From Escherichia coli (GTDB lineage: Bacteria > Pseudomonadota > Gammaproteobacteria > Enterobacterales > Enterobacteriaceae): 64,000 nt of DNA. Positions 23,778 through 64,000 of this stretch are shown here, piece after piece (positions within the stretch are counted from its first letter, which is position 1; each line of letters begins with the position of its first letter). The notes under the pieces are model-generated. The model did not search any database, was not told where the DNA came from, and saw nothing but the letters and a program-made list of their open reading frames with translations. Both the position numbers and the translations under genes were made by a program. The stretch lies in NCBI RefSeq assembly GCF_016903815.1, contig NZ_CP069973.1; one strand, written 5' to 3'.

Positions 23778-25025
23778 ATGAAAGGTAGTTATAAATCCCG
23801 TTGGGTAATCGTAATCGTGGTGGTTATCGCCGCCATCGCTGCATTCTGGTTCTGGCAAGGCCGCAATGACTCCCAGAGTGCAGCCCCAGGGGCGACGAAA
23901 CAAGCGCAGCAATCGCCAGCGGGTGGTCGCCGTGGTATGCGTTCCGGCCCATTAGCCCCGGTTCAGGCGGCGACCGCCGTAGAACAGGCAGTTCCGCGTT
24001 ACCTCACCGGGCTTGGCACCATTACCGCCGCTAATACTGTTACGGTGCGCAGCCGCGTGGACGGTCAACTGATGGCGTTGCATTTCCAGGAAGGCCAGCA
24101 GGTCAAAGCAGGCGATTTATTGGCAGAAATTGACCCCAGCCAGTTCAAAGTTGCATTAGCACAAGCCCAGGGCCAACTGGCAAAAGATAAAGCCACGCTT
24201 GCCAACGCCCGCCGTGACCTGGCGCGTTATCAACAACTGGTAAAAACCAATCTCGTATCTCGTCAGGAACTGGATGCCCAACAAGCGCTGGTCAGTGAAA
24301 CCGAAGGCACCATTAAGGCTGATGAAGCAAGCGTCGCCAGCGCACAGCTGCAACTCGACTGGAGCCGCATCACCGCGCCAGTTGATGGTCGCGTTGGTCT
24401 CAAGCAGGTTGATGTTGGTAACCAAATCTCCAGTGGTGATACCACCGGGATTGTGGTGATCACCCAGACGCATCCTATCGATTTGCTCTTTACCCTGCCG
24501 GAAAGCGATATCGCTACCGTAGTACAGGCGCAAAAAACCGGAAAACCGCTGGTGGTAGAAGCCTGGGATCGCACCAACTCGAAGAAATTAAGTGAAGGCA
24601 CGCTGTTAAGCCTCGATAACCAAATCGATGCCACTACCGGTACGATTAAAGTGAAAGCACGCTTTAATAATCAGGATGATGCGCTGTTTCCCAATCAGTT
24701 TGTTAACGCGCGTATGTTAGTCGACACCGAACAAAACGCCGTGGTGATCCCCACCGCCGCTCTGCAAATGGGCAACGAAGGCCATTTTGTCTGGGTGCTG
24801 AATAGCGAAAACAAGGTCAGCAAACATCTGGTGACGCCGGGCATTCAGGACAGTCAGAAAGTGGTGATCCGCGCAGGTATTTCTGCGGGCGACCGCGTAG
24901 TGACAGACGGCATTGATCGCCTGACCGAAGGGGCGAAAGTGGAAGTAGTGGAAGCCCAGAGCGCCACCACTCCGGAAGAGAAAGCCACCAGCCGCGAATA
25001 CGCGAAAAAAGGAGCACGCTCCTGA
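23778..25025 (+). CDS. mdtA: Multidrug efflux RND membrane fusion protein MdtA
   Basis: ORF track starts at 23631; ATG at 23778 ([14 protein letters not shown]...) gives 415 aa; stop overlaps mdtB start. Confidence 0.9.
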
Positions 25026-28000: not shown

Positions 28001-28147
28001 CGTCGTCCGTTAGGCATCGGCATGGTCGGCGGCCTGATTGTCAGCCAGGTGCTGACGCTGTTCACCACGCCGGTGATTTATCTGCTGTTCGACCGCCTGG
28101 CATTGTGGACCAAAAGTCGCTTTGCTCGCCATGAAGAGGAGGCGTAA
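25025..28147 (+). CDS. mdtB: Multidrug efflux RND transporter permease MdtB
   Basis: 1040-aa 12-TM RND protein; synteny mdtA-B-C-D-baeSR. Confidence 0.9.
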
Positions 28148-31100: not shown

Positions 31101-31225
31101 CCATTGTCGGCGGTCTGGTAATGAGCCAGCTTCTGACGCTGTATACCACGCCGGTGGTGTATCTCTTTTTCGACCGTCTGCGGCTGCGTTTTTCGCGTAA
31201 ACCTAAACAAACGGTAACCGAGTAA
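28148..31225 (+). CDS. mdtC: Multidrug efflux RND transporter permease MdtC
   Basis: 1025-aa RND paralogue directly after mdtB; GTG start at 28148. Confidence 0.9.
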
Positions 31226-32641
31226 ATGACAGATCTTCCCGACAGCACCCGCTGGCAATTGTGGATTGTGGCTTTCGGCTTCTTTATGCAGTCGCTGGAC
31301 ACCACCATCGTCAACACCGCGCTTCCCTCAATGGCACAAAGCCTCGGGGAAAGTCCGTTGCGTATGCACATGGTCATTGTCTCTTATGTACTGACCGTGG
31401 CGGTGATGTTGCCTGCCAGCGGCTGGCTGGCGGACAAAGTCGGCGTGCGCAATATTTTCTTTACCGCCATCGTGCTGTTTACCCTCGGTTCACTGTTTTG
31501 CGCGCTTTCCGGCACGCTGAACGAACTGTTGCTGGCACGCGCGTTACAGGGCGTTGGCGGTGCGATGATGGTGCCGGTCGGCAGATTGACGGTGATGAAA
31601 ATCGTACCGCGCGAGCAATATATGGCGGCGATGACCTTTGTCACAGTGCCCGGTCAGGTCGGTCCGCTGCTGGGTCCGGCGCTCGGCGGTCTGCTGGTGG
31701 AGTACGCATCGTGGCACTGGATCTTTTTGATCAACATTCCGGTGGGGATTATCGGTGCGATCGCAACACTAATGTTGATGCCGAACTACACCATGCAGAC
31801 GCGGCGCTTTGATCTTTCCGGCTTTTTATTGCTGGCGGTTGGCATGGCGGTATTAACCCTGGCGCTGGATGGCAGTAAAGGTACAGGTTTATCGCCGCTG
31901 GCGATTACTGGCCTGGTCGCTGTTGGCGTGGTAGCACTGGTGCTTTATCTGCTGCACGCCAGAAATAACAACCGCGCTCTTTTCAGTCTGAAACTGTTCC
32001 GCACTCGCACCTTTTCGCTGGGCCTGGCGGGGAGCTTTGCCGGACGTATTGGCAGTGGTATGTTGCCCTTTATGACGCCGGTTTTCCTGCAAATTGGCCT
32101 TGGCTTCTCACCGTTTCATGCCGGACTGATGATGATCCCGATGGTGCTTGGCAGCATGGGGATGAAGCGGATTGTTGTACAGGTGGTGAATCGCTTTGGT
32201 TATCGTCGGGTACTGATAGCGACCACGCTGGGTCTGTCGCTGGTCACCCTGTTGTTTATGACTACCGCTCTGTTGGGCTGGTACTACGTTTTGCCGTTCG
32301 TCCTGTTTTTACAAGGGATGGTCAACTCGACCCGTTTCTCCTCCATGAACACCCTGACGCTGAAAGATCTCCCGGACAATCTGGCGAGCAGCGGCAATAG
32401 TCTGCTGTCGATGATTATGCAATTGTCGATGAGTATCGGCGTCACCATCGCCGGGCTGTTGCTGGGACTTTTTGGTTCGCAGCATGTCAGCGTCGACAGC
32501 GGCACCACACAAACCGTCTTTATGTACACCTGGCTTAGCATGGCGTTTATCATCGCCCTTCCGGCGTTCATCTTTGCCAGAGTGCCGAACGATACGCATC
32601 AAAATGTAGCTATTTCGCGGCGAAAAAGGAGCGCGCAATGA
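31226..32641 (+). CDS. mdtD: MFS transporter MdtD
   Basis: 471-aa polytopic MFS-like protein; synteny. Confidence 0.9.
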
Positions 32642-34041
32642 AGTTCTGGCGACCCGGTATTACCGGCAAACTGTTTCTGGCGATTTTCGCCACCTGCATT
32701 GTCTTGCTGATCAGTATGCACTGGGCGGTGCGTATCAGTTTTGAGCGTGGCTTTATTGATTACATCAAGCATGGTAATGAACAGCGATTACAACTGTTAA
32801 GTGATGCGCTTGGCGAGCAGTATGCGCAGCATGGCAACTGGCGCTTCCTGCGCAACAATGATCGCTTTGTCTTTCAGATCTTGCGTTCATTTGAACACGA
32901 TAATTCGGAAGATAAACCCGGCCCGGGTATGCCGCCGCACGGCTGGCGTACCCAGTTCTGGGTGGTCGATCAAAACAACAAAGTGCTGGTTGGTCCGCGA
33001 GCGCCGATTCCACCTGACGGTACACGGCGACCCATTCTGGTCAACGGTGCGGAAGTGGGTGCGGTGATTGCCTCCCCTGTTGAGCGACTGACCCGCAATA
33101 CTGATATCAATTTCGATAAACAACAGCGGCAAACCAGCTGGCTGATTGTTGCTCTGGCAACGTTACTCGCGGCACTCGCTACCTTTCTGCTGGCGCGTGG
33201 TTTGCTGGCACCGGTAAAACGGCTGGTGGACGGCACGCACAAACTGGCGGCGGGCGATTTCACTACCCGCGTAACGCCCACCAGTGAAGATGAACTGGGC
33301 AAACTGGCGCAAGACTTCAACCAGCTTGCCAGCACGCTGGAGAAAAACCAGCAAATGCGGCGCGATTTTATGGCCGATATTTCTCACGAACTGCGTACGC
33401 CATTAGCGGTGCTGCGCGGTGAACTGGAAGCCATTCAGGATGGCGTGCGTAAATTCACGCCGGAGACGGTGGCGTCTTTACAGGCGGAGGTCGGTACACT
33501 GACCAAACTGGTTGACGATCTCCATCAGTTGTCGATGTCTGATGAAGGCGCTCTCGCCTATCAAAAAGCACCGGTAGATTTGATCCCACTGCTGGAAGTG
33601 GCGGGCGGCGCATTTCGCGAACGATTCGCCAGCCGTGGCCTGAAACTGCAATTTTCCCTGCCAGACAGTATTACCGTATTTGGCGATCGCGACCGTTTAA
33701 TGCAGTTATTCAATAACTTACTGGAAAACAGCCTGCGCTACACTGACAGCGGCGGTAGCCTGAAAATCTCTGCCGGGCAGCACGACAAAACGGTGCGACT
33801 GACCTTTGCCGACAGCGCGCCGGGCGTCAGTGACGATCAGCTACAAAAATTGTTTGAACGTTTTTATCGCACCGAAGGTTCCCGCAACCGAGCCAGCGGC
33901 GGTTCCGGGCTGGGGCTGGCGATTTGCCTGAACATTGTTGAAGCACATAATGGTCGCATTATTGCTGCCCATTCGCCTTTTGGCGGGGTAAGCATTACAG
34001 TAGAGTTACCGCTGGAACGGGATTTACAGAGAGAAGTATGA
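32638..34041 (+). CDS. baeS: Envelope-stress sensor histidine kinase BaeS
   Basis: 467-aa ORF with HAMP, H-box ([10 protein letters not shown]) and HATPase motifs; 4-bp overlap with mdtD. Confidence 0.9.
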
Positions 34042-34760
34042 CCGAGTTACCAATCGACGAAAACACACCGCGTATTTTGATCGTGGAAGATGAACCGAAG
34101 CTGGGACAGTTGCTCATTGATTATCTGCGTGCTGCGAGCTATGCGCCGACGCTTATCAGCCACGGCGATCAGGTACTGCCGTATGTGCGCCAGACACCAC
34201 CGGATCTGATCCTGTTGGATCTGATGCTCCCTGGCACCGATGGCTTGACGCTGTGCCGGGAAATTCGTCGTTTTTCTGACATTCCTATCGTGATGGTGAC
34301 GGCAAAAATAGAAGAGATCGACCGCCTGCTCGGACTGGAGATTGGCGCAGATGATTATATCTGTAAGCCGTACAGCCCACGGGAAGTGGTAGCGCGCGTC
34401 AAAACCATTTTGCGCCGTTGCAAACCGCAGCGTGAGTTGCAGCAACAGGATGCTGAAAGCCCGTTGATTATCGACGAAGGTCGTTTTCAGGCTTCATGGC
34501 GCGGTAAAATGCTTGACCTGACGCCTGCGGAATTTCGTCTGCTGAAAACGCTCTCTCATGAACCAGGAAAAGTGTTCTCCCGCGAGCAATTGCTCAATCA
34601 TCTTTATGACGACTACCGCGTAGTAACCGACCGCACCATCGACAGCCACATTAAAAACCTGCGCCGCAAGCTGGAATCTCTCGACGCCGAACAGTCCTTT
34701 ATCCGTGCCGTTTACGGCGTCGGTTACCGCTGGGAAGCCGACGCCTGCCGCATCGTTTAA
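34038..34760 (+). CDS. baeR: OmpR-family response regulator BaeR
   Basis: 240-aa ORF with receiver domain and winged-helix C-terminus; 4-bp overlap with baeS. Confidence 0.9.
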
Positions 34761-34939
34761 CATTTTTACCTGCCGGAGAAGGCATTCACGCCGCATCCGG
34801 CAACATAATCCCACGCATGGTCAGCAAACTGACATTATCTCTCCGCCCTGGCAGGCACCAGAAAATCGCTCATACTTTAATCGGTAAACAGTCCTTTTAG
34901 ATGCTGTTTTCGATACGCAATTTCAATCAAGGAGTCATT

Positions 34940-35272
34940 ATGGCTGGTTGGTTTGAACTCAGTAAAAGCAGTGATAATCAATTTCGGTTTGTGCTAAAAG
35001 CGGGCAATGGTGAGACTATCCTTACCAGCGAGCTGTATACCTCAAAAGCCTCTGCGGAAAAGGGCATCGCGTCGGTGCGTAGCAACAGCCCGCAAGAAGA
35101 ACGCTATGAGAAAAAAACGGCAAGCAACGGCAAATTCTATTTCAATCTGAAAGCCGCTAATCATCAAATTATCGGCTCCAGCCAGATGTACGCCACCGCG
35201 CAATCTCGTGAAACCGGAATTGCCTCCGTTAAAGCCAATGGCACAAGCCAGACGGTGAAAGACAATACGTAA
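34940..35272 (+). CDS. yegP: UPF0339 family protein YegP (tandem DUF1508 repeats)
   Basis: Start MAGWFELSKSSDNQFRFVLKAGNGE gives 110 aa; two internal repeats. Confidence 0.85.
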   Translation: MAGWFELSKSSDNQFRFVLKAGNGETILTSELYTSKASAEKGIASVRSNSPQEERYEKKTASNGKFYFNLKAANHQIIGSSQMYATAQSRETGIASVKANGTSQTVKDNT

Positions 35273-35419
35273 TTACGATGCCGGGCGTGGGTTGTTGGCG
35301 TCCGGCGCTTTACCAGCTCCCCCCTACAGCGCTACAATGCCCGCCCTTAAAGTGGGGGCACTCCCCTGGCCGCTTCATCAGGTGAAGCGGATCTGACCTG
35401 TCATCAGAACGAGAGAATT

Positions 35420-36781
35420 ATGTTTAAACCGGAACTCCTTTCCCCGGCGGGAACGCTGAAAAATATGCGTTACGCTTTCGCTTATGGCGCAGATGCTGTT
35501 TATGCGGGCCAGCCGCGTTACTCCCTGCGTGTGCGCAACAACGAATTTAACCACGAAAATCTTCAGCTCGGCATCAATGAAGCCCACGCGCTGGGGAAAA
35601 AGTTTTATGTCGTGGTCAACATTGCACCGCACAACGCCAAGCTGAAAACCTTTATCCGTGACCTGAAACCGGTGGTGGAAATGGGGCCGGATGCGCTGAT
35701 TATGTCTGATCCAGGGCTGATTATGCTGGTGCGCGAGCACTTCCCTGAAATGCCGATCCATCTCTCAGTACAGGCTAACGCCGTGAACTGGGCGACGGTG
35801 AAATTCTGGCAGCAAATGGGTCTGACCCGCGTGATCCTCTCTCGCGAACTGTCACTGGAAGAGATTGAAGAGATCCGCAATCAGGTGCCAGATATGGAGA
35901 TCGAAATCTTCGTTCACGGCGCGCTGTGCATGGCCTACTCCGGTCGCTGCCTGCTCTCTGGCTATATCAACAAGCGCGACCCGAACCAGGGCACCTGCAC
36001 CAACGCCTGCCGCTGGGAGTATAACGTCCAGGAAGGGAAAGAAGATGACGTCGGCAACATCGTACACAAGTACGAACCGATTCCGGTGCAAAACGTTGAA
36101 CCGACGCTGGGGATCGGCGCACCAACCGACAAAGTGTTTATGATCGAAGAAGCCCAGCGTCCGGGCGAGTATATGACCGCGTTTGAAGATGAGCACGGCA
36201 CTTACATCATGAACTCGAAAGATCTGCGCGCCATCGCCCATGTTGAACGCCTGACCAAAATGGGCGTGCATTCGCTGAAAATCGAAGGCCGTACCAAATC
36301 TTTCTACTATTGCGCACGCACCGCGCAGGTTTACCGTAAAGCTATCGATGACGCAGCTGCGGGAAAACCATTCGATACCAGCCTGCTGGAAACCCTGGAA
36401 GGTCTGGCGCATCGTGGCTATACCGAAGGTTTCCTGCGTCGTCATACTCACGACGATTATCAGAACTACGAATACGGTTATTCAGTTTCTGACCGCCAGC
36501 AGTTTGTTGGTGAGTTTACCAGTGAGCGCAAGGGCGACCTCGCGGCGGTAGCGGTGAAAAATAAATTCTCCGTTGGCGACAGCCTTGAGCTGATGACGCC
36601 GCAAGGGAACATTAACTTTACCCTTGAGCACATGGAAAACGCCAAAGGCGAAGCAATGCCGGTCGCACCGGGCGATGGTTATACTGTGTGGATCCCGGTG
36701 CCGCAGGATCTTGAGCTAAATTACGCGCTGCTGATGCGTAATTTCTCCGGGGAAACCACGCGTAACCCCCACGGTAAGTGA
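35420..36781 (+). CDS. yegQ: Peptidase U32 family protein YegQ (TrhP-type tRNA hydroxylation factor)
   Basis: 453-aa ORF; size and synteny before cyaR. Confidence 0.85.
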   Translation: MFKPELLSPAGTLKNMRYAFAYGADAVYAGQPRYSLRVRNNEFNHENLQLGINEAHALGKKFYVVVNIAPHNAKLKTFIRDLKPVVEMGPDALIMSDPGLIMLVREHFPEMPIHLSVQANAVNWATVKFWQQMGLTRVILSRELSLEEIEEIRNQVPDMEIEIFVHGALCMAYSGRCLLSGYINKRDPNQGTCTNACRWEYNVQEGKEDDVGNIVHKYEPIPVQNVEPTLGIGAPTDKVFMIEEAQRPGEYMTAFEDEHGTYIMNSKDLRAIAHVERLTKMGVHSLKIEGRTKSFYYCARTAQVYRKAIDDAAAGKPFDTSLLETLEGLAHRGYTEGFLRRHTHDDYQNYEYGYSVSDRQQFVGEFTSERKGDLAAVAVKNKFSVGDSLELMTPQGNINFTLEHMENAKGEAMPVAPGDGYTVWIPVPQDLELNYALLMRNFSGETTRNPHGK

Positions 36782-43778: not shown

Positions 43779-43985
43779 CTGTCCTGATTTGCACACACTC
43801 ATTTTCCGACTGACAGTTTACATAGCCCAAAAGTTATCAAATCTGACAGTCTGCTTTGAGCAAGAAGCGGACATTTGCCTGTCAGGGTATATGCCGCTCT
43901 GTGGTTATTATCCAGAATCAATAATTCATCTGAGTTGGATGACATATAAAACATAGTTACTCCATGAATAACCATTAGCAGATTA

Positions 43986-44579
43986 TCAATTATGTAAATC
44001 TTTTGTTTTATGTTCTTTAGCGTATTGTGACAACAAATGGCTATAGCGTTTAAGCAAAATATTAGAAAGATTAAGCTCATTCATGAAGTGTTCTTCTAAT
44101 AAGTAACCATCAATATCAACTTTAATATCATTACCACTTTTCATCTTCTGTAACGTAGATTTCACACGCTCCAGCAGGATGCTTTGCTCATGGTAATAGT
44201 CCATAAGAAGAGTAACATCCTCTTTATCAAGCTTACTTAATTCGCTGAAGTAGGATTTAAACACTTTATCAGTCTGGTTTAATGCAATCTGTAAGCGAGG
44301 CCCCCCTAATGATTTGACATTAATGGCAAAAGGCTCGCCAACAAAATGCTCCGAATTTTCGTCAAAGCCAATATATCTCGTTTTATCAAGAAAAGTGAGA
44401 GCGCGATGGTTATTAGCGATTTCATATGCAAACATTGTTCTGATACTGTCCCTCTCAGCCTCCATGCTTATATCATCACGGTGATTTGTATAAAATATAT
44501 TTCCAACAAAGAGAACCATAGCAAGAATCACTGAACTTGCCTCCCAGTTAATATTTTTAAATCGTCGCTTAGTAAACAT
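43986..44579 (-). CDS. Hypothetical membrane-anchored protein (cargo gene at the P2 Z/fun position)
   Basis: 197-aa ORF in an AT-rich block between G and FI; N-terminal basic stretch plus one TM helix (SSVILAMVLFVGNIFY); no recognised catalytic motif. Confidence 0.6.
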   Translation of the reverse strand: MFTKRRFKNINWEASSVILAMVLFVGNIFYTNHRDDISMEAERDSIRTMFAYEIANNHRALTFLDKTRYIGFDENSEHFVGEPFAINVKSLGGPRLQIALNQTDKVFKSYFSELSKLDKEDVTLLMDYYHEQSILLERVKSTLQKMKSGNDIKVDIDGYLLEEHFMNELNLSNILLKRYSHLLSQYAKEHKTKDLHN

Positions 44580-44800
44580 ACCGCACCTTAATTATCAAAA
44601 ATATTCCTTCAGTGTTATCTGGTTAGCCTAAACCAAGTCATTAAAGTCCGCAGGATATCATATACATAAAATGTATTGATTAGAATTTGCACTAATAAAA
44701 TAATGCTTTACTGAAATCTACTCCAGACATAGAGCGGCCTGTCAGATTAGGCTTTACTCTGTGCCATAGATATGTAATCTCACACCAGAGCTTATACAAC

Positions 44801-45328
44801 TTATTGCGGCATTTCCGGCCATTCAGGATTTACAGGATCCACACGGCTGACCAGAACGCTGTAGCGTTCCCATGACTCCAGTCGTGCACGTTCCTCATCC
44901 GTCGCCATATTCAGCCTGACAGCGCGTTCCAGTGGCTGAATAACGCTTTCCGCTTCGGAAAGTAATGCGGCCTTTTGTGATTCTGCCTGTTGTTGCTGTT
45001 CATCTGCCGTATAAATCCGTTTAACCACAGCACCATCCTTAAACATCCATTTACCTGAGTCGTCAGCACGTCGGTTGGAGGTAATATCAGGAACCTCAAC
45101 AACGCTAAAACCTTCAGGGTTAAGCGTTGAAGCATCTCTGGTGATAGCGACAATAATATTATTTTCATCGTAAACAATCTTTATTGTGTCTGGCTGAAAG
45201 TTCTTCACTTCCTCATACCAGTTTTTTCCATCCTCAGAGTAAAGCCAGATAACTCCGTGTTTCTTTGTTAACTCATACTGTTCCAGTGTTTTAGCGTTAC
45301 CCGCTTTTATGTTCTTTAAGTGCATCAT
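44801..45328 (-). CDS. G: Tail fiber assembly protein G
   Basis: 175 aa, same length and position as P2 gpG. Confidence 0.85.
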
Positions 45329-45329
45329 A

Positions 45330-47351
45330 TTAAACGCTCGCTACATTATACCAGGTGCCATTTATATACTTTTGAACGGGTCTGTAATAAACGCCCGCTA
45401 TATTATCGGCAGAGTTGGACCCTGTATCCTGAACATTAATACCAGACAATACATGACCTGACGGGCACTGGAAATTCCATGTTTGCCAGTTGTTCACTCC
45501 ATAATATTGCTGTGAACCAAGTCGAACATCTTTCACATATCTGGAATCAAAATTGCCATAGTTGCCAGGAATAACTTGCGAGCCACAAAGCCAGTTACCG
45601 TTATTATCCATGTACGCCTGACCATCGGTGCCATTGGCTGTCCTTGAGTTATTAATCATGTAGATGCCAAATTGCTTGTTCCCCAGTCCACCTATCATGA
45701 ACTTGCGGTCAGCGTGATTCTGGCGAAGCAACGCCTGAGCGCTATCAGTGTTAACTATATTTTTCCCAAAGATAGCGTTGTTATCGCGCATCTGAATCCA
45801 CATACCATTACTGCTGTTAATAGCAAAACGGTCTGAAAGCGTCTCCCCTGAAACATTAAGGCCACGCCCCATCGAAACAGCGCCAGTAGCGTTATTAATC
45901 CATAATGGCCTTAATCCGTTATAAGTCCCCATGTTGTCACCGGAGTTTGTCAACATGAAGTATGTATTTGAACCATCATTACGAATAAAGAATCCGTAAT
46001 TACCATAAGCAATACGTAGGCCGTTTGCTGATTTTGATATGACTTCGCCATTTACAATGGCATTGACAAGAACATACAAAGCATCCCATTTAAGATTCAT
46101 CAGGTCTTTTGTTGTAGTACTCTGGCGGCTTCTCCATTTGAAATATTCATTGCCGTTATCCCCCGTTTCAAACCACATGAATGAATCAGTGTCACCATCG
46201 GCATCATTTTTAAATCCAATCTTCGCCCAGTCAGTATTTCGAATCCAGGCAAGGATTGAGTCGTTTTCAAAAGTAAGTCCACCGGACAAGGTATCGCCAT
46301 TTTTTTGCACGGCGTTCCCGGCTCGGTTTACCGTTTCCTGTAAACCGAGATATTCGATAACGGCGGCAACGGTCGATTTAGCCAGAATATCCCGCCCGAC
46401 TTTTGTCAGGGTTGCCAGGCTGGCAACATCATTCCCCATAAAATACGGAAACCTGTCTGCCGCAGTAGCAAGCCCCGCCAGTGCCGTCAGGGTGGCATCT
46501 TTCGGTTGCTTCCCCGCAAGCGCATTAGTCATGGTGGTAGCAAAATTCGGGTCATTGCCCAGCGCCGCCGCCAGCTCGTTCAGCGTATTCAGTGCGTCAG
46601 GCGACGAGTCTACAAGGGCGGCAATCGCGGCCATAACGAAAGCCGTGTTTGCGATCTGAGTATTATTCGTTCCCTGTCGCGCAGTTGGCGTCGTTGGCGT
46701 TCCGGTCAGTGCAGGGCTGTTTAATGGCGCTTTCTTGTTCGTTTCATCCATTACCGTCTTAACGGCTTTCGGCGTTGCAGCCAGTGTTTCAGACGTGCTG
46801 TTGGTCGCACTGCTTAACTGAGTAAAACCTTTTGCGGTCAGCGAGGCGTCAGGGTGACGTCGTGACTGTTCATGTTCTGCAATTTTGTCATCAACGTAAT
46901 CCTGCGTCGCCATCACCGTTGTGGTGTCGATGGTCAGATCCACTGAGGCCACACTGCTGACGATAATGACCATGCGGCAGGTCTGCGAACGTCCTGAGCC
47001 TTCGGCAAGGGCTGGCTTATAACTTTCGGCCATGTTCGCCACGGCAATTAACGTTCCTGCATCATCGTACAGGCCAAGCTCACGCATCCAGAAACCGCCC
47101 ACCTCCGGCGGAATAACCAGCTCTGCGATAATATAATTACTGTTTCGTTTGTCCTGGCTGATTTTGTTCAGCGCATGTCGCCAGACTTCGTGGATAAGCC
47201 CGGTCTGTCCGGCATCCGGGACAGGCAATTTACCACCGCCATCCCCGACGGCCATCGTGGTAATGTTGACCTTCCGCCCTCCCGGCGCGGTTGCCGCTGC
47301 CAGCTTTGCTGCACCGGCAGTGGTGATAACGGTTTTGAATTTTGTGCTCAT
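45330..47351 (-). CDS. H: Tail fiber protein H
   Basis: 673 aa (P2 gpH about 669 aa); Thr/Ala/Gly-rich repeats in the fiber shaft. Confidence 0.9.
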
Positions 47352-49145: not shown

Positions 49146-49771
49146 AAAGGACTCCCGGTTGTGCCGCCGCTGTCGCCGGGGTGTTTGTGGGTATGCAGTA
49201 CCTTACCGTTTGATGAGAGTTCACCGCCGGTGTGTTCAATGTTGCCGCGCATCGTCCCGCCCTTCTGCACTTCCAGCGTGCCGGTAGTCAGTTTGTTAGT
49301 GCAGACCACTTCTGGTGTGTCCAGGGTGACGCGGGTTGATGCTTTCACCGTGACCACTGGTACCGTGGCAGTAACAGAATCAGAAGCCGTCACGCTGGCC
49401 GTTTTAATTCCGCTTACCGTGAGTGCACTGGTTTCAGGTTCATACTCAATCACCGCCCCGTCAGGGAAACGGATATGCAGGGCATCCGCCGACGCAGACG
49501 GCGCAGGGTTATCGCCGGAATAAATCCCCGGCAGAACGAACGCCGTGTCGAGTTCACCGCCCACGGCCAGAATCAGCACCTGTTCCCCCACGGAAGGTGC
49601 CCACCATGTGCGCGAACGCCCAGCGCGATGGGTCAGCCACTGAAGCCAGTCGGTGCACATGCCGCCAGTCTGCACACGGCAGCGACCGGCATTAAGGTCG
49701 GTTTCGACGATAATGCCAGTGCGAATCATATTGCGTATAAAGCGAAGAATTTCATTGTATTGTGCATTCAT
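49142..49771 (-). CDS. V: Baseplate spike protein V
   Basis: ORF track 235 aa; internal start MNAQYNEILRFIRNM gives about 209 aa (P2 gpV about 211 aa). Confidence 0.85.
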   Translation of the reverse strand: MNAQYNEILRFIRNMIRTGIIVETDLNAGRCRVQTGGMCTDWLQWLTHRAGRSRTWWAPSVGEQVLILAVGGELDTAFVLPGIYSGDNPAPSASADALHIRFPDGAVIEYEPETSALTVSGIKTASVTASDSVTATVPVVTVKASTRVTLDTPEVVCTNKLTTGTLEVQKGGTMRGNIEHTGGELSSNGKVLHTHKHPGDSGGTTGSPL

Positions 49772-49857
49772 TCGATAATAATGATTCTGTACAATCTCGA
49801 AGTAAATCACACCACGATTTCTGGTGCACAGAACAACAAGGGACAACAAAATCCATT

Positions 49858-50931
49858 ATGAGTACTTACTTTTTCTCGTCAGAAACAATGAAAGAATTGT
49901 TCAAAGATTATCTGGTCTTTTTGAACACGCTGACTCCCAGCACAAACTTTGAATCAAACAGAAACAAAATAATTGCTCAAGCAATAAACTTCATTTCCGA
50001 AAACCCTGAAGATTGGGACAAAAAATCCCAGTACAACATTGCTATGATTGGCGACACCTTTAAAAGTTTCTTAAGAGAAAAGGGGGAAGATAACAACAGC
50101 ATCAACCTTATATTCACTTGCTTTTTTAGATTTATCATTGAACCAAGCATTCTCTCTCCGGAAATAGAGTCTCACTTTTCACCACTAAGAACCATCAAGG
50201 ATTTTGCTCTGTATAACTATAATGAATTCGATGAGCGGAGCAGAGCACAGATAGACTTTTCTCTTAGAGAACTGCCATTAGCAATGGTTAAAGAAGTTTT
50301 AAGCTCCAGCAATGTTGACACATATAAAAAATACATTGATAGTTTAAACGAAGGGCGTCAATTTTTCGAAAAGTGCGACTCCTTCTTAAAGGAGCAACAT
50401 GCCAAAATAGAGTCAATTAAAGAGTCATTAAAAGGGTATGAGGTCGCATTTAATTTTGTTGGATTGTTTGATGGCTTTAATTCACTTGGCAAAAAGAAAG
50501 AAAGTGAAATCATGCTATCAAGAATAATTCTTATCATCTTGGCTATAATCATTCCCTCCCCGCTGATATACTATGGAATGCATAAATTACCAACTCTCGA
50601 AACGACAAATGCTGCCACATATTTTATGTCAGCACTACCTTTTGCATCAGTTACATTGATTTTCATGTATTACTTTAGAGTTGTACTGATAAATCATATA
50701 TCGTTACGAACTCAGATTATGCAAATAGAACTCAGAAAGAGCCTTTGTCAGTTCATTCAGAGTTATAGCGACTATTCCTCAGAGATAAGGAAAAACAATC
50801 CGGAAGCGCTTTCAAAATTCGAAGACGTAGTATTTTCAAACATCATGCTATCCGATGATAAGATACCATCTACATTTGATGGCATTGAGCAAATAGCATC
50901 GTTAATCAATTCATTAAAAAATGGAAAGTAA
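49858..50931 (+). CDS. Hypothetical two-TM membrane protein (cargo gene between V and S)
   Basis: ATG at 49858 (MSTYFFSSETMKELF) gives 357 aa; AT-rich; soluble N-terminal region, two hydrophobic helices (IILIILAIIIPSPLIYYG and ALPFASVTLIFMYYF), C-terminal tail; opposite strand to phage late genes. Confidence 0.65.
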   Translation: MSTYFFSSETMKELFKDYLVFLNTLTPSTNFESNRNKIIAQAINFISENPEDWDKKSQYNIAMIGDTFKSFLREKGEDNNSINLIFTCFFRFIIEPSILSPEIESHFSPLRTIKDFALYNYNEFDERSRAQIDFSLRELPLAMVKEVLSSSNVDTYKKYIDSLNEGRQFFEKCDSFLKEQHAKIESIKESLKGYEVAFNFVGLFDGFNSLGKKKESEIMLSRIILIILAIIIPSPLIYYGMHKLPTLETTNAATYFMSALPFASVTLIFMYYFRVVLINHISLRTQIMQIELRKSLCQFIQSYSDYSSEIRKNNPEALSKFEDVVFSNIMLSDDKIPSTFDGIEQIASLINSLKNGK

Positions 50932-51033: not shown

Positions 51034-51486
51034 CTAACGATTCAGGTGAGCCAGGATAATCTCTTCAATCATCTGCACATCCTCACCGGTAAAGCCAAGC
51101 AGAGGACGCGCCGGATAATCAATTTTCTTACCGTCTTTCCGGGTTTCTTCCGACAGACCGAACTGATGCACACTGGCGATTTTCGGTGACTTCCCGCCGT
51201 AAAACTCCATTGATGCCTGTTCAGGGCTGGCGCGGATATGCAAAAAACGACTGGTGATAAGTTTCGCAAACATTTTTCGCTTAACGCGACCGGTCTTTTT
51301 TCTGGCGCTCTGCTGCTGGCGTGGTGCGTAGGGTGTGCCGTCCGGGGCTTTCTGTGCCATCACCCGACGCTGCTGACTCTGCCGCAGACGTTTCGCCAGT
51401 TCTGCACTCAGTCGCCGACGCCCAGACGGTGACAGCGATTCAATCAGTCCGGTCAGCCGGTCTTCAAAACGCTTAAACTCATTCAT
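51034..51486 (-). CDS. S: Tail completion protein S
   Basis: 150 aa, same as P2 gpS. Confidence 0.85.
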   Translation of the reverse strand: MNEFKRFEDRLTGLIESLSPSGRRRLSAELAKRLRQSQQRRVMAQKAPDGTPYAPRQQQSARKKTGRVKRKMFAKLITSRFLHIRASPEQASMEFYGGKSPKIASVHQFGLSEETRKDGKKIDYPARPLLGFTGEDVQMIEEIILAHLNR

Positions 51487-51946
51487 CCCACTTGCTCACC
51501 AGTTCACCATTGATATAAAGCTCCATCGGGCGATTGACTGGCTCCGGCGGCGGAGGTTCCGGGATATTCTTCACATGCAGCGCACCGTCAACCTCACTGA
51601 CCAGCGTTCGCTCGGTCAGCATCAGGCTGATGCTGATATCAAAGCTGCTGTCATTGTTGATGTCTGCATAAAACGTGAAACCTTTTTTCTGACCTTCGTC
51701 GGTGGTCATGATGTCGGGCTGATTTTCCCGCAGCCACGCCAGCACCGGCACGATGAGCAGGTCAAAATCACCGGTAAAGTCGGTCACAATCACATTGAGC
51801 GTGTAACGCTTTTCGAACGACAGCGACGTCGCCAGCGTGGAGGCAATACTCCCGTTATCCACGAATATCCGCAGCATCTCTGGACTGGTTTTCAGCACCG
51901 TGACGGCATCAGTCAGCGCCCTGCGCAGGCTGTCGGGTTTGAGCAT
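51479..51946 (-). CDS. R: Tail completion protein R
   Basis: 155 aa, same as P2 gpR. Confidence 0.85.
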   Translation of the reverse strand: MLKPDSLRRALTDAVTVLKTSPEMLRIFVDNGSIASTLATSLSFEKRYTLNVIVTDFTGDFDLLIVPVLAWLRENQPDIMTTDEGQKKGFTFYADINNDSSFDISISLMLTERTLVSEVDGALHVKNIPEPPPPEPVNRPMELYINGELVSKWDE

Positions 51947-52199
51947 CGTTTTCGTCCTGACAGTGTTTAATCATTTTTACCTGGCTGGCACAACGTGCCA
52001 GCGCGTTCTCAAGCTGCCGGATATCGGCACTTAAATCGCCGTTCGTCTCCGGGTCACTGCCCGGCATCGGGCAAAGGCTCACTTTCGGGCAGGCGTTGGC
52101 GACAATCACTGGCGTCGGTGCAGGCGGGGCGCTGGTGCAACCGGCGCACAGCATCAGGCAGGTCAGCACCATACCAGCGGCGAAAATCTTCGTTTTCAT
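51909..52199 (-). CDS. lysC: LysC, Rz1-like outer-membrane lipoprotein spanin
   Basis: Internal start MKTKIFAAGMVLTCLMLCAGC gives a lipobox signal peptide and Pro-rich body; embedded in the 3' part of lysB in another frame. Confidence 0.7.
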   Translation of the reverse strand: MKTKIFAAGMVLTCLMLCAGCTSAPPAPTPVIVANACPKVSLCPMPGSDPETNGDLSADIRQLENALARCASQVKMIKHCQDENDAQTRQPAQGAD

Positions 52200-52479
52200 T
52201 AAGTAACCTCGTGATGGTTTTCTCGCGCTGTGCTTCACGCTTCGCGGCGTTCTCCAGTTCCTGACGCAGTGCCACCTGCGCCAGCTCGTTTTTGTCTGCC
52301 CTGGTGATGGCAACATGAAGCTGATTTTTCAGCATGGTGATGGTCGTCTGCTGTTCACTGGCGACGTTATTCGCCCTGTCCAGCGAGGCGCGCAGGCTGG
52401 CATTTTTGTGTTTCACCAGAAACAGACCGGTCACCGCCAGCGATAACAACACGACCAGCACAATCATCAGCTTTGACAT
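52054..52479 (-). CDS. lysB: LysB, Rz-like inner-membrane spanin
   Basis: 141 aa with N-terminal TM anchor and coiled-coil periplasmic region. Confidence 0.8.
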   Translation of the reverse strand: MSKLMIVLVVLLSLAVTGLFLVKHKNASLRASLDRANNVASEQQTTITMLKNQLHVAITRADKNELAQVALRQELENAAKREAQREKTITRLLNENEDFRRWYGADLPDAVRRLHQRPACTDASDCRQRLPESEPLPDAGQ

Positions 52480-52892
52480 AGTTCCCGCCCCTCAAAACGC
52501 TGACGGCAGGCCGTACGTATCAGCCGGAAGAACACCGATACCACGAGATAAATCAGCGCGGTAAAAATCCACCCGGCAGCGACCAGCGAGATAAACGTCG
52601 CCACCATCACCACCAGAGCCGCCGCCCGTCTGCGCCACGGCACCGGCTGCAAAAACAGCGACGTGACGATCTTCACGGCCAGCGATTCCGGCGGCAGCTC
52701 CCGCCCGTAGCGTTCCAGCACATACTCCGTGGCATACACGCCGACACCACCGGCAACCACACAGATAACCGTCGCCAGAATCGCCCATGCAGCGACAAAA
52801 CTGACGGCCACGCTCTGCGGGTAAATCAGGGACAGTGCCAGCATCAGCGCCAGCGACACGTTCAGCATCAGTGAAAGGGATAATTTCTTCAT
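52467..52892 (-). CDS. lysA: LysA, lysis-timing membrane protein
   Basis: 141 aa polytopic membrane protein, same size and position as P2 LysA. Confidence 0.8.
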   Translation of the reverse strand: MKKLSLSLMLNVSLALMLALSLIYPQSVAVSFVAAWAILATVICVVAGGVGVYATEYVLERYGRELPPESLAVKIVTSLFLQPVPWRRRAAALVVMVATFISLVAAGWIFTALIYLVVSVFFRLIRTACRQRFEGRELCQS

Positions 52893-52906
52893 GGTGTTTA
52901 CTCCGT

Positions 52907-53404
52907 TTAAGCCGGTACGCCGCCAGCGGTACGCCAGACGGTGACCAGTTTTTCCAGTGAATGCTCACGCTGACCGTAACCGGCACCCGGCAGGGACGCC
53001 CAGATATTGCGACAGCGTAAAATGGCGCGCTCAATGCGTCCCGCCCGGATGTCATCCAGTGCACCGCGTTCGCGGATCAACTGAATGGCGAGCCTGTCCT
53101 GTGACAACGGACTGAAATCCGGCAGGGCAAGCTGTTTGCGGTAGTGCGGCCAGAACAGGTAAAGCTGCTGATAGCGACCGGAGGCCGTGGATTTTTCACC
53201 GCGACGGTTAAACACCTTCGCCGGTCGGCCATGCGCGAACGGGTGGTCACTGTAGTCGGTGAAAATTTCCGGCTTCCCGTCCAGTCCGGTGACTATCACG
53301 TCATAGCCCCGGTTTTTCGTCAGCGGATGATTCGCCGTCCCTTCGGACACCGCCAGCATGTCGAGAAAGGCAGCGATATTCTGATGCGTGTTAATTACCG
53401 GCAT
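52907..53404 (-). CDS. K: Endolysin K (lysozyme-like)
   Basis: 165 aa, same as P2 gpK. Confidence 0.85.
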   Translation of the reverse strand: MPVINTHQNIAAFLDMLAVSEGTANHPLTKNRGYDVIVTGLDGKPEIFTDYSDHPFAHGRPAKVFNRRGEKSTASGRYQQLYLFWPHYRKQLALPDFSPLSQDRLAIQLIRERGALDDIRAGRIERAILRCRNIWASLPGAGYGQREHSLEKLVTVWRTAGGVPA

Positions 53405-53685
53405 TACGGTTTCCCCCTGCCCTTAAAGCGGCGCTGAATGGCAATCTCAATCACCTGATAACCGGCGATACCCAGCATGGAGCCGATGCCGCACACCGCA
53501 GGCAGTGACAGGTCAGGAAACTGCACCAGAACAACACCGGCAACCATCGAGACAAAACCACCGAGCAACATGCGCCCGATAAACAGACGCGGGGTGATGG
53601 GTTCACCACCGGCAAGCACCTTGCCGACAACAATCAGCACCCCAATCATGAAAAGCGACAGGACGCTTTTTTCTTCTGCTGTCAT
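53404..53685 (-). CDS. Y: Holin Y
   Basis: 93 aa with hydrophobic helices, same as P2 gpY. Confidence 0.85.
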   Translation of the reverse strand: MTAEEKSVLSLFMIGVLIVVGKVLAGGEPITPRLFIGRMLLGGFVSMVAGVVLVQFPDLSLPAVCGIGSMLGIAGYQVIEIAIQRRFKGRGKP

Positions 53686-60596: not shown

Positions 60597-62021
60597 ATGG
60601 TTTCGTCAAACGTCAAAATAGCAGCATTTCCAGCAAAAAGATTCTTTGTTGAGATGCTCACCCGAGATATTGAGTTGTCTGACTCAATTCTAGATTTACT
60701 AGATAACTGCCTAGATGGTGTATTAAGAAAAAACAATTTCACTCCAGAGCAAACCTTCGGTAAATCAGACGTTTACAAGGGTTACTATGCTCATATTGAA
60801 TTTGATGAGAATAGTTTCAGAATAACTGATAATTGCGGAGGTATTCCAGCAAAACTTGCGGAAAGCTATGCGTTTAGGTTGGGTAGACCTGCAGAACGTG
60901 AGGCGGATGATCTCCCGACAATTGGTGTATATGGTATCGGAATGAAACGAGCGATTTTCAAAATGGGGACATCTGCTCAGATTTTAAGCAAAACTGAAAA
61001 CGAACAATTTTCAGTTACCATTTCTCCTGAATGGATGGCTGATGATGAAAACTGGTCTTTGGAGTTAGAGCGAAATAATGTTGACTTAAACGAAACAGGC
61101 GTCAGCATCCAAATTAACAATTTAAGGAAAGATATTAAAGCATCCCTATCAAAGGATCGTGGCTTTGAAGAAGTTTTGATTAATATCATAGCAAATCATT
61201 ATAGTTTAATCATTAAAAAAGGGTTTGAGGTTAAAGTAAATGGATGTATTGTTAAGCCAAATAGCACCAATTTAATATTTGATGAAGAAGCCATTAAAGG
61301 CAATACCGACGGCATTGCTCCTTATGTATATAAAAATAATTCAAATGGAGTTTCAATTAAAGTTGCAGTTGGATTTTATCGTAACTTGCCTAGTGAGGAA
61401 GAAGAAGAGAATTTATTATCAGGCCGTTCCACAACAGAAAAAGCTGGTTGGACAATTATATGCAATGATCGTGTAGTCCTACATGCGGATAAAACCAAGC
61501 TTACAGGTTGGGGAGAAGCTGGAGTTCCACAATATCATACTCAATTCATCGGAATTTCTGGTGTTGTTATTTTCACATCATCAAATGCTGAATTACTACC
61601 TATCACTACAACTAAACGAGGTGTTGATGGTAACTCTGAGCTATATCTTTCTACTAAAGATTTTATGCGCGAGGGTTTAAAATTCTTCACGGACTTTACC
61701 AACAAATGGAAAAGTAACGCAGAGGAAAGAAAGCAAATTATTAATACTGCATCCAATATGGTTTCAACAACTGAGGTCGACTTTACTAAATCAATTCCTA
61801 GAGAAAACTGGTCGAACGTTCGACGTTCAATAGGAGGAGAAGTTTTCAAACCGAAGCTACCAATGCCTCGGGATTCGGATCCATTACGTCAGATAAAATT
61901 TAGCCGTAGACATAGTGAAATAAAACTGGTGTCAGAGTTTCTCTTTGATGATGCAACTCAACCACCAACAGAGGTTGGTCAATATTGTTTTGATGAATTT
62001 CTAAAAAAGGCTAAACAATGA
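60597..62021 (+). CDS. GHKL-superfamily (Bergerat-fold) ATPase, cargo gene 1 of a two-gene operon
   Basis: 474 aa, AT-rich. GHKL motifs readable in order: N-box DLLDNCLDG, G1 box ITDNCGGIP, G2 box GVYGIGMKRAIF. SD aaggat 6 nt upstream of ATG. Confidence 0.75.
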   Translation: MVSSNVKIAAFPAKRFFVEMLTRDIELSDSILDLLDNCLDGVLRKNNFTPEQTFGKSDVYKGYYAHIEFDENSFRITDNCGGIPAKLAESYAFRLGRPAEREADDLPTIGVYGIGMKRAIFKMGTSAQILSKTENEQFSVTISPEWMADDENWSLELERNNVDLNETGVSIQINNLRKDIKASLSKDRGFEEVLINIIANHYSLIIKKGFEVKVNGCIVKPNSTNLIFDEEAIKGNTDGIAPYVYKNNSNGVSIKVAVGFYRNLPSEEEEENLLSGRSTTEKAGWTIICNDRVVLHADKTKLTGWGEAGVPQYHTQFIGISGVVIFTSSNAELLPITTTKRGVDGNSELYLSTKDFMREGLKFFTDFTNKWKSNAEERKQIINTASNMVSTTEVDFTKSIPRENWSNVRRSIGGEVFKPKLPMPRDSDPLRQIKFSRRHSEIKLVSEFLFDDATQPPTEVGQYCFDEFLKKAKQ

Positions 62022-63010
62022 GTACTGGCGGAAGCATCCCATATCATTTGCGGCAAAACAAAGCCATTGAAAGGAATCTATTTATAGAATCCCTAAGAAG
62101 GTTAAACAATTATACAAACATATCCGAATATGTATATATAGGATTCGGGGGGCCTTTCCTCGAAGATTTCAAACAAATTCATAATTTGTTAAAAGTGACT
62201 AAAATGATATCTATCGAAGGAGATAAAAATGTCCATTGCCGACAACAGTTTAACAAACCATTATCTTGCATAAATTTGGGTGATACCCCAGAAATGAGCG
62301 GAGACTTCATCAATCGCTATAACTTTGACGATAAAACGATCATATGGTTAGATTATGCAACGCCTTCAGACTTAAATGCTCAGTTAAATGAAATAGTTAA
62401 TTTGGTTACAAAGCTAAAACCCAAAGACATTTTTAAGATCACTTTAAATGCAAACCCTGAAGCCTTGGGAAAAAACCCGAGCGAACGAGATCCAAGAGCA
62501 TATAGATTTCAAAAGATAAACGATATTTTGACTCAAGATTTTTTACCACCGAATGCAGTAGTCGAAGATGTCGGATTTAAAAAATACCCTATGCTCCTAG
62601 TTAATGCTATGAGACGCGCAATAGGGCATGGATTAAAAGGTCGAAATGACATAAGAATACATCCATTAACTTCTTTCGTTTATAAAGATGGCCAACAGAT
62701 GGTTACTTTAACAGCTATCGTTCTTGAAAACACTGATACAGAAGAAGCTAAATTTATTGATAATTCCAGAATCAAGAATTGGCCATTTTATGATGGGAAG
62801 TGGAGTAATCCTAAAAATATAAACGTCCCTGCTATGTCTTTAAAAGAAAGGATACATATTGAATCTTTATTACCCGAAGCTTCAGTAGAAAACATCCATG
62901 AAACTCTAGGGTTTTACATTGGCTCCACTCCTTCTGGAGCCAACTCCGATCTAAGTAATTTTATCGAATACTACAAGGTCGTTCCATGGTATTCAAAGAT
63001 TCTTTTTTAA
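62018..63010 (+). CDS. Hypothetical protein, cargo gene 2 (partner of the GHKL ATPase)
   Basis: 330 aa; start overlaps the upstream stop (ATGA), implying translational coupling. Gly-rich YIGFGGPF then ISIEGD and IIWLDYATPSD resemble a Rossmann-like nucleotide/SAM-binding fold only loosely. Confidence 0.65.
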   Translation: MSTGGSIPYHLRQNKAIERNLFIESLRRLNNYTNISEYVYIGFGGPFLEDFKQIHNLLKVTKMISIEGDKNVHCRQQFNKPLSCINLGDTPEMSGDFINRYNFDDKTIIWLDYATPSDLNAQLNEIVNLVTKLKPKDIFKITLNANPEALGKNPSERDPRAYRFQKINDILTQDFLPPNAVVEDVGFKKYPMLLVNAMRRAIGHGLKGRNDIRIHPLTSFVYKDGQQMVTLTAIVLENTDTEEAKFIDNSRIKNWPFYDGKWSNPKNINVPAMSLKERIHIESLLPEASVENIHETLGFYIGSTPSGANSDLSNFIEYYKVVPWYSKILF

Positions 63011-64000
63011 CTTTTAAACAGTAATCGTATAAAGGTAATAGCATAGCCTCAGCCACAAGCGGACTAACGCTATTACCTATCTGTCTAAAACTGTGCCACT
63101 TTGTAGGATGAAAACGGAACCAATCAGGAAACCCTTGTAACCTAGCTGCTTCACGAGGAGTTATCACCCTAGCTTGAGTAGGGTGAATTGGCCTAACGGC
63201 CTGATAACTCCCCTTGTCACTTCCTGTACCTGCTCTCAAAGTTGGACAAAAACCGTTAGGATTGAGTCGTTGTGATCTCGAAATCTTATCAGTTTCACCG
63301 AATGAAAGTTGTCTATATCTCCTGAGCACTTCCTCCGAATGAGCTGTACCTAAAAAGCCAGATACCAATCCTTTCTTTAAATTTTGAATGGATTCTGCAT
63401 CACCTACACCATTTGGTATATGTCCCCAAAGTCGCTCATAATAGTAACCATCTTTATCCATTTTTACTGAACGCCAGCCTTGCTCCTCTGTCTGCCACTC
63501 TTTTCTTATAGTTCGCGGTAATCCGTAGAGTGCATCTTTGACAAGAGTCTGCTCTATTATATTTTTAGGAAAAAAATCAGATTCTTTTAACTGATTAATA
63601 AAACCTCTTTTAAAACCCATGAAAAATATTCGTGTCCGTGTCGTAGGTGCTCCATAATTTGAAGCATTAACCCTTATTGGATGTAATAAACAATAGCCAT
63701 CTCTAACTAAAGAAAATGCTTCTTCTCTTACTGGATTATATTTCTCACCCATAATTCCTGGAACATTCTCTGCCAAAAAACAAATTGGAGATAACTCACT
63801 TACCAACCTAAAAAAATGAATATACAATTCATTTCTTGTATCATTGGCATTCCTTTTTCCAATGGTGCTAAATCCTTGGCAAGGTGGACCACCAATAACG
63901 CAATCAATGTCCTTTACAGCACATGCAGACAAAATATCTTTTGCTGTAAGCGAGCAGACATCCCGATGCAAATGTGTTGATTTTGGGAAGTTTAACTCAT
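62961..64000 (-). CDS. DNA (cytosine-5)-methyltransferase, C-terminal part in window (N-terminus beyond window end)
   Basis: m5C-MTase motifs: GGPPCQGFS (motif IV), FLAENVPG (motif VI), TTRTRIFF (motif VIII), IGNSVSP (motif X). Reading frame stays open past 63971 to the window edge, so motif I lies outside. Confidence 0.8.
   Translation of the reverse strand, partial: ELNFPKSTHLHRDVCSLTAKDILSACAVKDIDCVIGGPPCQGFSTIGKRNANDTRNELYIHFFRLVSELSPICFLAENVPGIMGEKYNPVREEAFSLVRDGYCLLHPIRVNASNYGAPTTRTRIFFMGFKRGFINQLKESDFFPKNIIEQTLVKDALYGLPRTIRKEWQTEEQGWRSVKMDKDGYYYERLWGHIPNGVGDAESIQNLKKGLVSGFLGTAHSEEVLRRYRQLSFGETDKISRSQRLNPNGFCPTLRAGTGSDKGSYQAVRPIHPTQARVITPREAARLQGFPDWFRFHPTKWHSFRQIGNSVSPLVAEAMLLPLYDYCLKVKKESLNTMERPCSIR

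Follow-up and report, generated by a model that had tools for sequence, protein, structure and literature searches.

The DNA at positions 51909-52479 of the window, by which we mean the whole 64,000-nt stretch of Escherichia coli contig NZ_CP069973.1 that was analysed, almost certainly encodes the lysB/lysC two-component spanin of a P2-like (Peduovirus) E. coli prophage, the pair that forms the last step of a Y-K-lysA-lysB-lysC lysis cassette, and its two genes are overlapped, not embedded. The gene pair is already known, ordinary, carried by a common prophage and already named in RefSeq; as a discovery it has little value, and the practical value of the analysis lies in annotation quality, where 'overlapped' rather than 'embedded' is the correct label.

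Identity and setting of the gene pair

The stretch is the union of two ORFs, lysB and lysC, which lie on the minus strand and, as the earlier note had seen, in different frames; the coordinates given in the note span both genes from end to end (Table 1). The lysC frame is open from 51909 to 52316 on the minus strand, and the ATG at 52199 gives a protein of 96 aa with the N-terminus MKTKIFAAGMVLTCLMLCAGC... (MKTKIFAAGMVLTCLMLCAGCTS..., MKTKIFAAGMVLTCLMLCAGCTSAPPAPTP...).

Table 1. Coordinates of the spanin genes, their signals and the neighbouring late genes in the window
Feature	Position	Strand	Description
holin Y	53404-53685	minus	PF04550, E=2.6e-42
endolysin K	52907-53404	minus	upstream lysis gene, same cassette
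lysA	52467-52892	minus	overlaps lysB start by 13 nt
lysB	52054-52479	minus	i-spanin (inner-membrane spanin subunit), 426 nt, 141 aa, starts MSKLMIVLVVLL...
LysB N-terminal transmembrane segment (predicted)	52414-52470	minus	residues ~4-22, LMIVLVVLLSLAVTGLFLV; Kyte-Doolittle 19-residue maximum 2.98 from residue 4
Shine-Dalgarno GAGG of lysC	52207-52210	minus	7 nt before ATG, inside LysB Thr-Arg codons
lysC	51909-52199	minus	o-spanin (outer-membrane lipoprotein subunit), 291 nt; precursor 96 aa, predicted mature form 76 aa; +1 frame relative to lysB
LysC signal peptide (predicted)	52140-52199	minus	codons 1-20; n-region with K2 and K4, hydrophobic core I5-L17
LysC lipobox L17-C18-A19-G20-C21	52137-52151	minus	predicted lipid attachment at Cys21; A-G-C21 at -2/-1/+1
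lysB/lysC dual-coding overlap	52054-52199	minus	146 nt
Perfect 8-bp hairpin	51984-52002	minus	GCUGGCAC-GUU-GUGCCAGC; lysC-only segment, from fold
lysC/R overlap	51909-51946	minus	38 nt; lysC 3' end enters tail-completion gene R
R	51479-51946	minus	tail-completion gene, PF06891
S	next after R	minus	tail-completion gene, PF05069

Both proteins belong to named families. LysB scored 172.8 bits against the NCBIfam model TIGR03495 (Rz-like lysis system protein LysB; cut-off 92.75) and matched phrog_89, 'Rz-like spanin', at E=8.8e-61; LysC scored 130.8 bits against NCBIfam NF038368 (P2_Rz1, Rz1-like lysis system protein LysC; cut-off 27) and 62.5 bits against Pfam PF23793 LysC (E=3.6e-17; cut-off 27). 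TIGR03495 and NF038368 are curated NCBIfam equivalog models. At the DNA level, the 2.4-kb cassette is 97-99.5% identical to that of P2, Wphi, L-413C, fiAA91-ss and many other Peduovirus genomes, and copies 100% identical to the 571 nt of the pair stand in RefSeq E. coli chromosomes under the labels lysB and lysC; 1608 of 5426 complete E. coli genomes contain a match. When LysB and LysC were compared by sequence with PDB chains, nothing meaningful was returned (E=0.66 for DksA; E=0.11 for a protease inhibitor), and neither protein has a relative of solved structure there.

The closest known counterpart is the lysB/lysC pair of P2 itself (NC_001895, 7922-8347 and 8202-8492), which is the same in Wphi, L-413C and fiAA91-ss. 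In P2 the two genes have equal lengths (426 and 291 nt), the same 146-nt overlap in the +1 frame and the same 38-nt overlap with R, the products are 96% identical for LysB and for LysC alike, and the context of Shine-Dalgarno (SD) sequence and ATG, the LCAGC lipobox, the internal hairpin and the flanking genes are all shared. The differences amount to four residues in LysC (K2R, M10T, A34P and E51Q), six residues in LysB and one base in the hairpin loop; in addition, an ORF of 389 aa lies downstream of S here, where P2 has orf30. This cargo ORF had no match in searches of PADLOC, Pfam and NCBIfam. The late-gene block around the pair is intact (Y-K-lysA-lysB-lysC-R-S), in the order X-Y-K-lysA-lysB-lysC-R-S as in P2, and the upstream lysis genes Y, K and lysA (52467-53685, minus strand) match phrog_90, phrog_162 and phrog_175, with synteny to P2 and Wphi. 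Elsewhere in the window there is an apparent mdtABCD-baeSR cluster with a yegQ-like gene, followed by the P2-like prophage.

Architecture of the overlap

Three architectures of two-component spanins are distinguished: embedded, as in λ Rz/Rz1, where the o-spanin gene lies wholly in the i-spanin gene; overlapped, where it begins within the i-spanin gene in a different frame and stops past its end (Summer 2007; Kongari 2018); and separated, as in T4 (PMC3556154, PMC6139136). P2 lysB/lysC is the example given for the overlapped class, in contrast to the embedded λ Rz/Rz1 (PMC3556154, PMC3091744, PMC6139136). The earlier note had placed lysC inside lysB and called the arrangement the classic embedded one of Rz/Rz1, and the coordinates refute this. 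The 291 nt of lysC consist of 146 nt common with lysB, 107 nt of lysC alone and 38 nt common with R. The gene starts at 52199 within lysB, at an offset of +1, and ends at a stop codon (51909-51911) that lies 145 nt past the lysB stop (52054-52056), so that 51909-52053 is outside lysB altogether and only 146 of 291 nt are within it. The other part of the claim, that some of this DNA codes in two frames, holds for those 146 nt.

The chance that the locus is an embedded pair of the λ type, its lipoprotein gene enclosed from start to stop by lysB, is practically nil. What speaks for such a pair is that lysC, like Rz1, starts within its partner gene in the +1 frame, but in λ, Rz1 (46186-46368) is wholly inside Rz (45966-46427), whereas lysC runs out of lysB and into R. 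The literature and RefSeq likewise class P2-type pairs as overlapped (PMC3556154, PMC3091744, PMC6139136): the RefSeq note on an identical gene reads 'substantially overlapping although not fully embedded', and the Wphi row of supplementary file 5 of PMC6139136 gives 'ovl', 7922-8348 and 8202-8493, with an overlap of 146, the same figures as in the window. We used the Wphi row for this comparison with SpaninDB; the Wphi coordinates are identical to those of P2.

Sequence similarity separates the two pairs as well. λ Rz and Rz1 fall in PF03245 and PF06085 (E=2.6e-54 and 2.9e-20), as against TIGR03495 and PF23793 for LysB and LysC; neither LysB nor LysC matched PF03245 or PF06085, and BLASTP against λ Rz and Rz1 gave E values of 0.37 and 0.36. 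Mature Rz1 has 40 aa, as compared with 76 aa predicted for mature LysC. Because the Pfam families differ, similarity is not significant and Rz1 lies wholly in Rz, we conclude that this pair would work like Rz/Rz1 but stands outside the Rz/Rz1 sequence families and architectural class. LysB and LysC have been described as the equivalents of Rz and Rz1 (PMC6139136, PMC3556154, PMC3091744). The same final lysis step is carried out by the separated pair pseT.3/pseT.2 of T4 and by the unimolecular spanin gp11 of T1 (PMC6139136); the former has no gene overlap and the latter is a single polypeptide.

Conservation and selection in both frames

We compared the locus with 15 diverse Peduoviridae loci from seven host genera (Escherichia, Salmonella, Erwinia, Yersinia, Burkholderia, Pseudomonas and Aeromonas), in which lysB, lysC and R were located by script, and with 64 close relatives taken from IMG/VR. 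The other Peduoviridae pairs compared were those of 186, PSP3, ENT90, Fels-2-like SEN8, Burkholderia KL3, Milagro and FLC5, Pseudomonas phiCTX-like Sirocco and Aeromonas LPM4; they belong to the same two protein families, with identities of 33-77% for LysC and 25-62% for LysB. Each of the 15 diverse loci has lysC in the +1 frame relative to lysB, with its start 146-176 nt before the lysB stop, its end 94-157 nt after that stop and inside R, and an overlap of 8-68 nt with R.

The earlier note had held that its reading would fall if homologues kept neither a ribosome-binding site nor the lipobox, and both signals are kept. An SD-like purine motif stands 7-9 nt before the lysC start in 15/15 diverse loci (GAGG in 11, GGAG or AAGG in 4), with GAGG in 59 and GAGA in 5 of the 64 close relatives, and Cys21 is invariant in all 15 diverse LysC homologues; the reading of lysC as a translated lipoprotein gene therefore survives. 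Among the close relatives, the lysC ORF is intact, codon 1 is ATG and the lipobox with the residue that follows it is LCAGC-T in 64/64. Across the diverse alignment of LysC, M1, G9, L15, C21, C37, C43 and C70 are invariant and C14 and C80 nearly so, and the tail (residues 84-96) is poorly conserved in distant homologues. The conservation of four cysteines on the presumed periplasmic side (37, 43, 70 and 80) suggests disulfide bonds. In LysB, the overlapped part (residues 94-141) is 35-75% conserved in distant relatives, as compared with 14-54% for residues 1-93; Cys120 and Cys126 are restricted to the P2/186 clade, and 4 of the 64 close relatives carry stop-loss variants of 147 and 156 aa.

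Polymorphism among the 64 relatives indicates purifying selection in both the lysB and the lysC frame. Segregating sites make up 16% of the overlap as compared with 29% of lysB-only DNA (Fisher p=0.004), and the segregating fraction of lysB wobble positions, read as codon position 2 in the lysC frame, falls from 47% in lysB-only DNA to 24% in the overlap (p=0.011). The overlap shows 27 variants, of which only 5 change both LysB and LysC, although 53% of the conceivable single-base changes there would (binomial p=3e-4). Within the 107 nt of lysC alone, there are 2, 5 and 10 segregating sites at lysC codon positions 1, 2 and 3 (chi-square p=0.056). The R frame dominates in the 38 nt that lysC shares with R, where 3 of 4 variants alter LysC but are silent in R.

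The openness of the +1 frame, on the other hand, was dropped as evidence for lysC, since the frame stays free of stops in 97% of synonymous recodings of LysB; the gene status of lysC follows from homology and conservation. The same recodings produce a signal-plus-lipobox-like pattern in 2.9% of cases, and with the 97% this is what could be put forward for regarding the +1 ORF as an untranslated by-product of GC content and of the codons used for LysB, with lysB the only gene and 51947-52053 an untranslated spacer before R. Such a by-product is extremely improbable in view of family HMM scores far above their cut-offs, of homologues down to 33% identity that keep the frame relation, the start context and the invariant cysteines in 15/15 loci, of an ORF intact in every close relative and a depletion of variants that change both frames, and of a lysC-only stretch that is most variable at lysC codon position 3. 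In addition, lysC alleles of P2 with phenotypes are on record (Markov 2004, as cited in PMC3556154). We thus retain lysC as a gene.

Start codon, signal peptide and lipobox of LysC

On identical or near-identical DNA, RefSeq PGAP starts lysC at codon 10 (264-nt CDS) or at codon 16 (246-nt CDS), and these calls are the grounds for supposing that the gene is real but begins downstream of the ATG at 52199. We consider this highly unlikely. Codon 10 is ACG (Thr) in P2 and 48 of the 64 close relatives, whereas codon 1 is ATG in all 64; a start at M16 would give MLCAGC and no signal peptide; and only the ATG of codon 1 has a properly spaced SD together with a Lys-containing n-region and a full hydrophobic core. 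Moreover, distant LysC homologues all begin at aligned codon 1, and the CDS is 291 nt in the P2, Wphi and 186 records. The supported start is thus the ATG at 52199, and the RefSeq starts are 9 or 15 codons too late. They are inconsistent with one another and strip the signal peptide from the protein, a practical matter in a gene that overlaps both of its neighbours, lysB and R, with which gene callers and six-frame views cope badly.

The LCAGC motif named in the earlier note is present at 52137-52151, and the description of the lipoprotein as Pro-rich is borne out by 8 Pro in the first 30 residues of the predicted mature protein (9 of 76 in the whole). In the P2/186 clade, a Cys occupies position -3 of the lipobox (CAGC or CVGC), which in this form fails three patterns: a PROSITE-like PS51257, G+LPPv2 and [LVI][ASTVI][GAS]C, the last being the consensus quoted in PMC6139136. 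Pattern-based lipoprotein detectors will consequently miss LysC of the P2/186 clade because of this Cys. Nine more distant homologues have LSGC, LAGC or LCAC at the aligned position, and the residue at -1 is Gly or Ala in all 15 diverse homologues. The Cys at -3 is a small deviation within a family in which Cys21 is invariant, and this invariance, together with the canonical lipoboxes that distant homologues have at the corresponding position, points to processing at Cys21. Lipidation at Cys18 (L-M-L-C) was weighed as an alternative and rejected, since Leu at -1 breaks every lipobox rule and distant homologues have Leu in place of Cys18. The +2 position after Cys21 is Thr22 in 64/64 close relatives, with no Asp there; under the established '+2 rule' of lipoprotein sorting, this implies that LysC is, by prediction, sorted to the outer membrane.

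For LysB, no second hydrophobic segment scored above residues 4-22 in a Kyte-Doolittle scan with a window of 19 residues, and the N-terminus is hydrophobic in 15/15 aligned homologues. LysB would accordingly span the inner membrane once, with the N-terminus in, the C-terminus out and the remainder in the periplasm. The earlier note is supported in its reading of a two-component spanin pair, which is homologous to P2 lysB/lysC and consists of a predicted inner-membrane protein and a predicted outer-membrane lipoprotein.

Function in lysis

The spanin function, disruption of the outer membrane after degradation of peptidoglycan by a complex of i- and o-subunits, is carried over to this pair from the genetics of P2 and λ (PMC6139136, PMC3556154, PMC3091744), and the lipidation of LysC, its place in the outer membrane, the formation of the complex and membrane fusion are likewise expected by analogy with that literature. 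On this model, a single mRNA from the late O-operon promoter would cover all the genes from Y to S. LysB would insert its N-terminal TM helix as a type II inner-membrane protein with a periplasmic domain after it, and LysC would be translated in the +1 frame from its own SD and ATG within the 3' third of lysB, then exported, lipid-modified on Cys21, cut by signal peptidase II and, with Thr at +2, sorted to the outer membrane. By binding each other at their periplasmic ends, the two proteins would bridge the periplasm. After the holin had triggered and the endolysin had removed the peptidoglycan, the complex would draw the two membranes together and fuse them, so that the outer membrane is destroyed and virions are set free, as in the λ model (PMC6139136).

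An alternative would be that LysB and LysC regulate the timing of lysis by acting on holin or antiholin and do not disrupt the outer membrane as spanins do. Older annotation of P2 describes lysB and lysC as 'nonessential; affects timing of lysis' or speaks of timing and regulation of lysis, many GenBank records carry the name 'lysis regulatory protein', and lysC missense alleles lead to early lysis in the account given by PMC3556154, citing Markov 2004. Nonetheless, such a regulatory role is very unlikely. In topology, LysB, with its predicted N-terminal TM segment, matches an i-spanin, and LysC, with its lipoprotein signal, an o-spanin; a location behind the endolysin gene and an overlap in the +1 frame also suit a spanin pair. 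The pair figures as a paradigm spanin in curated family names and in the spanin census (PMC6139136), and a timing phenotype would not conflict with a spanin role. Spanins are dispensable in shaken laboratory cultures, so the 'nonessential; timing' annotation of P2 is consistent with spanins, while falling short of direct proof of outer-membrane disruption. Nothing that we found contradicts the explanation of the pair as a spanin.

The hairpin within lysC

In the part of lysC that overlaps neither neighbour, the transcript can fold into a perfect 8-bp hairpin (Table 1). A terminator scan gave weak in-gene matches only, and the lysC hairpin was not called because no U-run follows it. One could speculate that the P2/186 lipobox (L-C-A-G-C, with three cysteines in the signal peptide) is processed unusually, for example through slow or regulated maturation by Lgt and LspA or through an alternative Cys, that this, together with the hairpin and the position of the lysC stop in R, could couple the timing of lysis to expression of the tail genes, and that the stop-loss variants of LysB represent an overlap drifting towards embedding; we hold out very little hope for these ideas. 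The hairpin itself corresponds to the 'putative transcription attenuator' of the P2 record, and its stem is kept in 63 of the 64 close relatives when a change from A-U to G-U is counted as kept.

Natural variation in the lysB/lysC pair

The length of the overlap between the two spanin genes of this P2-like prophage is not fixed: in 4 of 64 close relatives (IMG/VR sequences L054, L072, L075 and L084), the TGA stop codon of lysB has been lost through a T-to-C or an A-to-C change, LysB runs to 147 or 156 aa, and the overlap of its gene with lysC lengthens to 164 or 191 nt. These alleles are natural variation in the extent of dual coding. Substitutions also occur in the mature part of the outer-membrane spanin LysC, where residue 25, its first proline, is Arg in 34 relatives, Pro in 29 and Gln in one, and residue 28 is likewise polymorphic (Pro in 46, Leu in 12, Gln in 6). 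PMC3556154, citing Markov 2004, reports that P2 lyses early when missense alleles affect the first two prolines.

The annotated start of lysC varies even within a single genome. In NZ_CP023820.1, which carries two copies of the prophage (L015 and L097), PGAP begins the gene at codon 10 in one copy and at codon 16 in the other; either choice removes the signal peptide, and the conserved start lies 27 or 45 nt upstream of these annotated starts.

Within lysC there is also a hairpin, the counterpart of a feature listed in the P2 record as a "putative transcription attenuator", from which it differs in one loop base (U here, C in P2). Its stem is conserved in 63 of 64 relatives, a figure that counts one A-U to G-U change as conserved, and no U-run follows it.

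Features of the window and of lysC in NZ_CP023820.1
Feature	Position	Strand	Remarks
lysC CDS, copy L015	3308-3571		NZ_CP023820.1; RefSeq PGAP
lysC CDS, copy L097	3092-3337		NZ_CP023820.1; RefSeq PGAP
Peptidase_U32 gene, yegQ-like	35420-36781		next after mdtABCD-baeSR-like genes
Third low-GC stretch in prophage	43800-46200		36-43%; 197-aa ORF, distal tail-fibre and assembly genes
197-aa ORF	43986-44579	-	phrog_3829 (labelled unknown function); P2 Z/fun position
389-aa ORF	49762-50931	+	between S and V, on the opposite strand; P2 orf30 position
Hairpin	51984-52002	-	perfect 8-bp stem, 3-nt loop; inside lysC, codons L-A-R-C70-A-S
LysC residues 25 and 28	about 52116-52127
Low-GC island	60597-63971		35-40%; directly past portal gene Q, near P2 cos and old/tin hotspot
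GHKL-type ATPase, 474 aa	within island		PF13589, phrog_20521
PF20553 "putative O-methyltransferase", 330 aa	within island		phrog_19983
C-5 cytosine DNA methyltransferase	62961-63971	-	PADLOC MTase_II, 273 bits

Candidate cargo and flanking genes

The ORF between S and V appears to be a cargo (moron) gene that has been swapped at this site. Its GC content is low (33-36%), the C-terminal half of its product is hydrophobic, and in other strains the same site holds a hypothetical gene of 786 nt or 1044 nt; it matches phrog_9373 (labelled unknown function), and Pfam, NCBIfam and PADLOC searches with it returned no match.

The island beyond Q resembles cargo of a restriction or defence type, and just 45 of 5426 complete E. 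coli genomes have it. The ATPase and PF20553 genes overlap each other, and both are convergent with the methyltransferase gene; neither of their products had a match in the PADLOC search.

Host genes occupy 23631-36781, upstream of the prophage, and include ORFs of 464, 1040, 1025, 471, 467 and 240 aa that, going by their sizes, look like mdtABCD-baeSR. This mdtABCD-baeSR/yegQ region is presumably where E. coli K-12 has a P2-like remnant (ogrK-yegZ).
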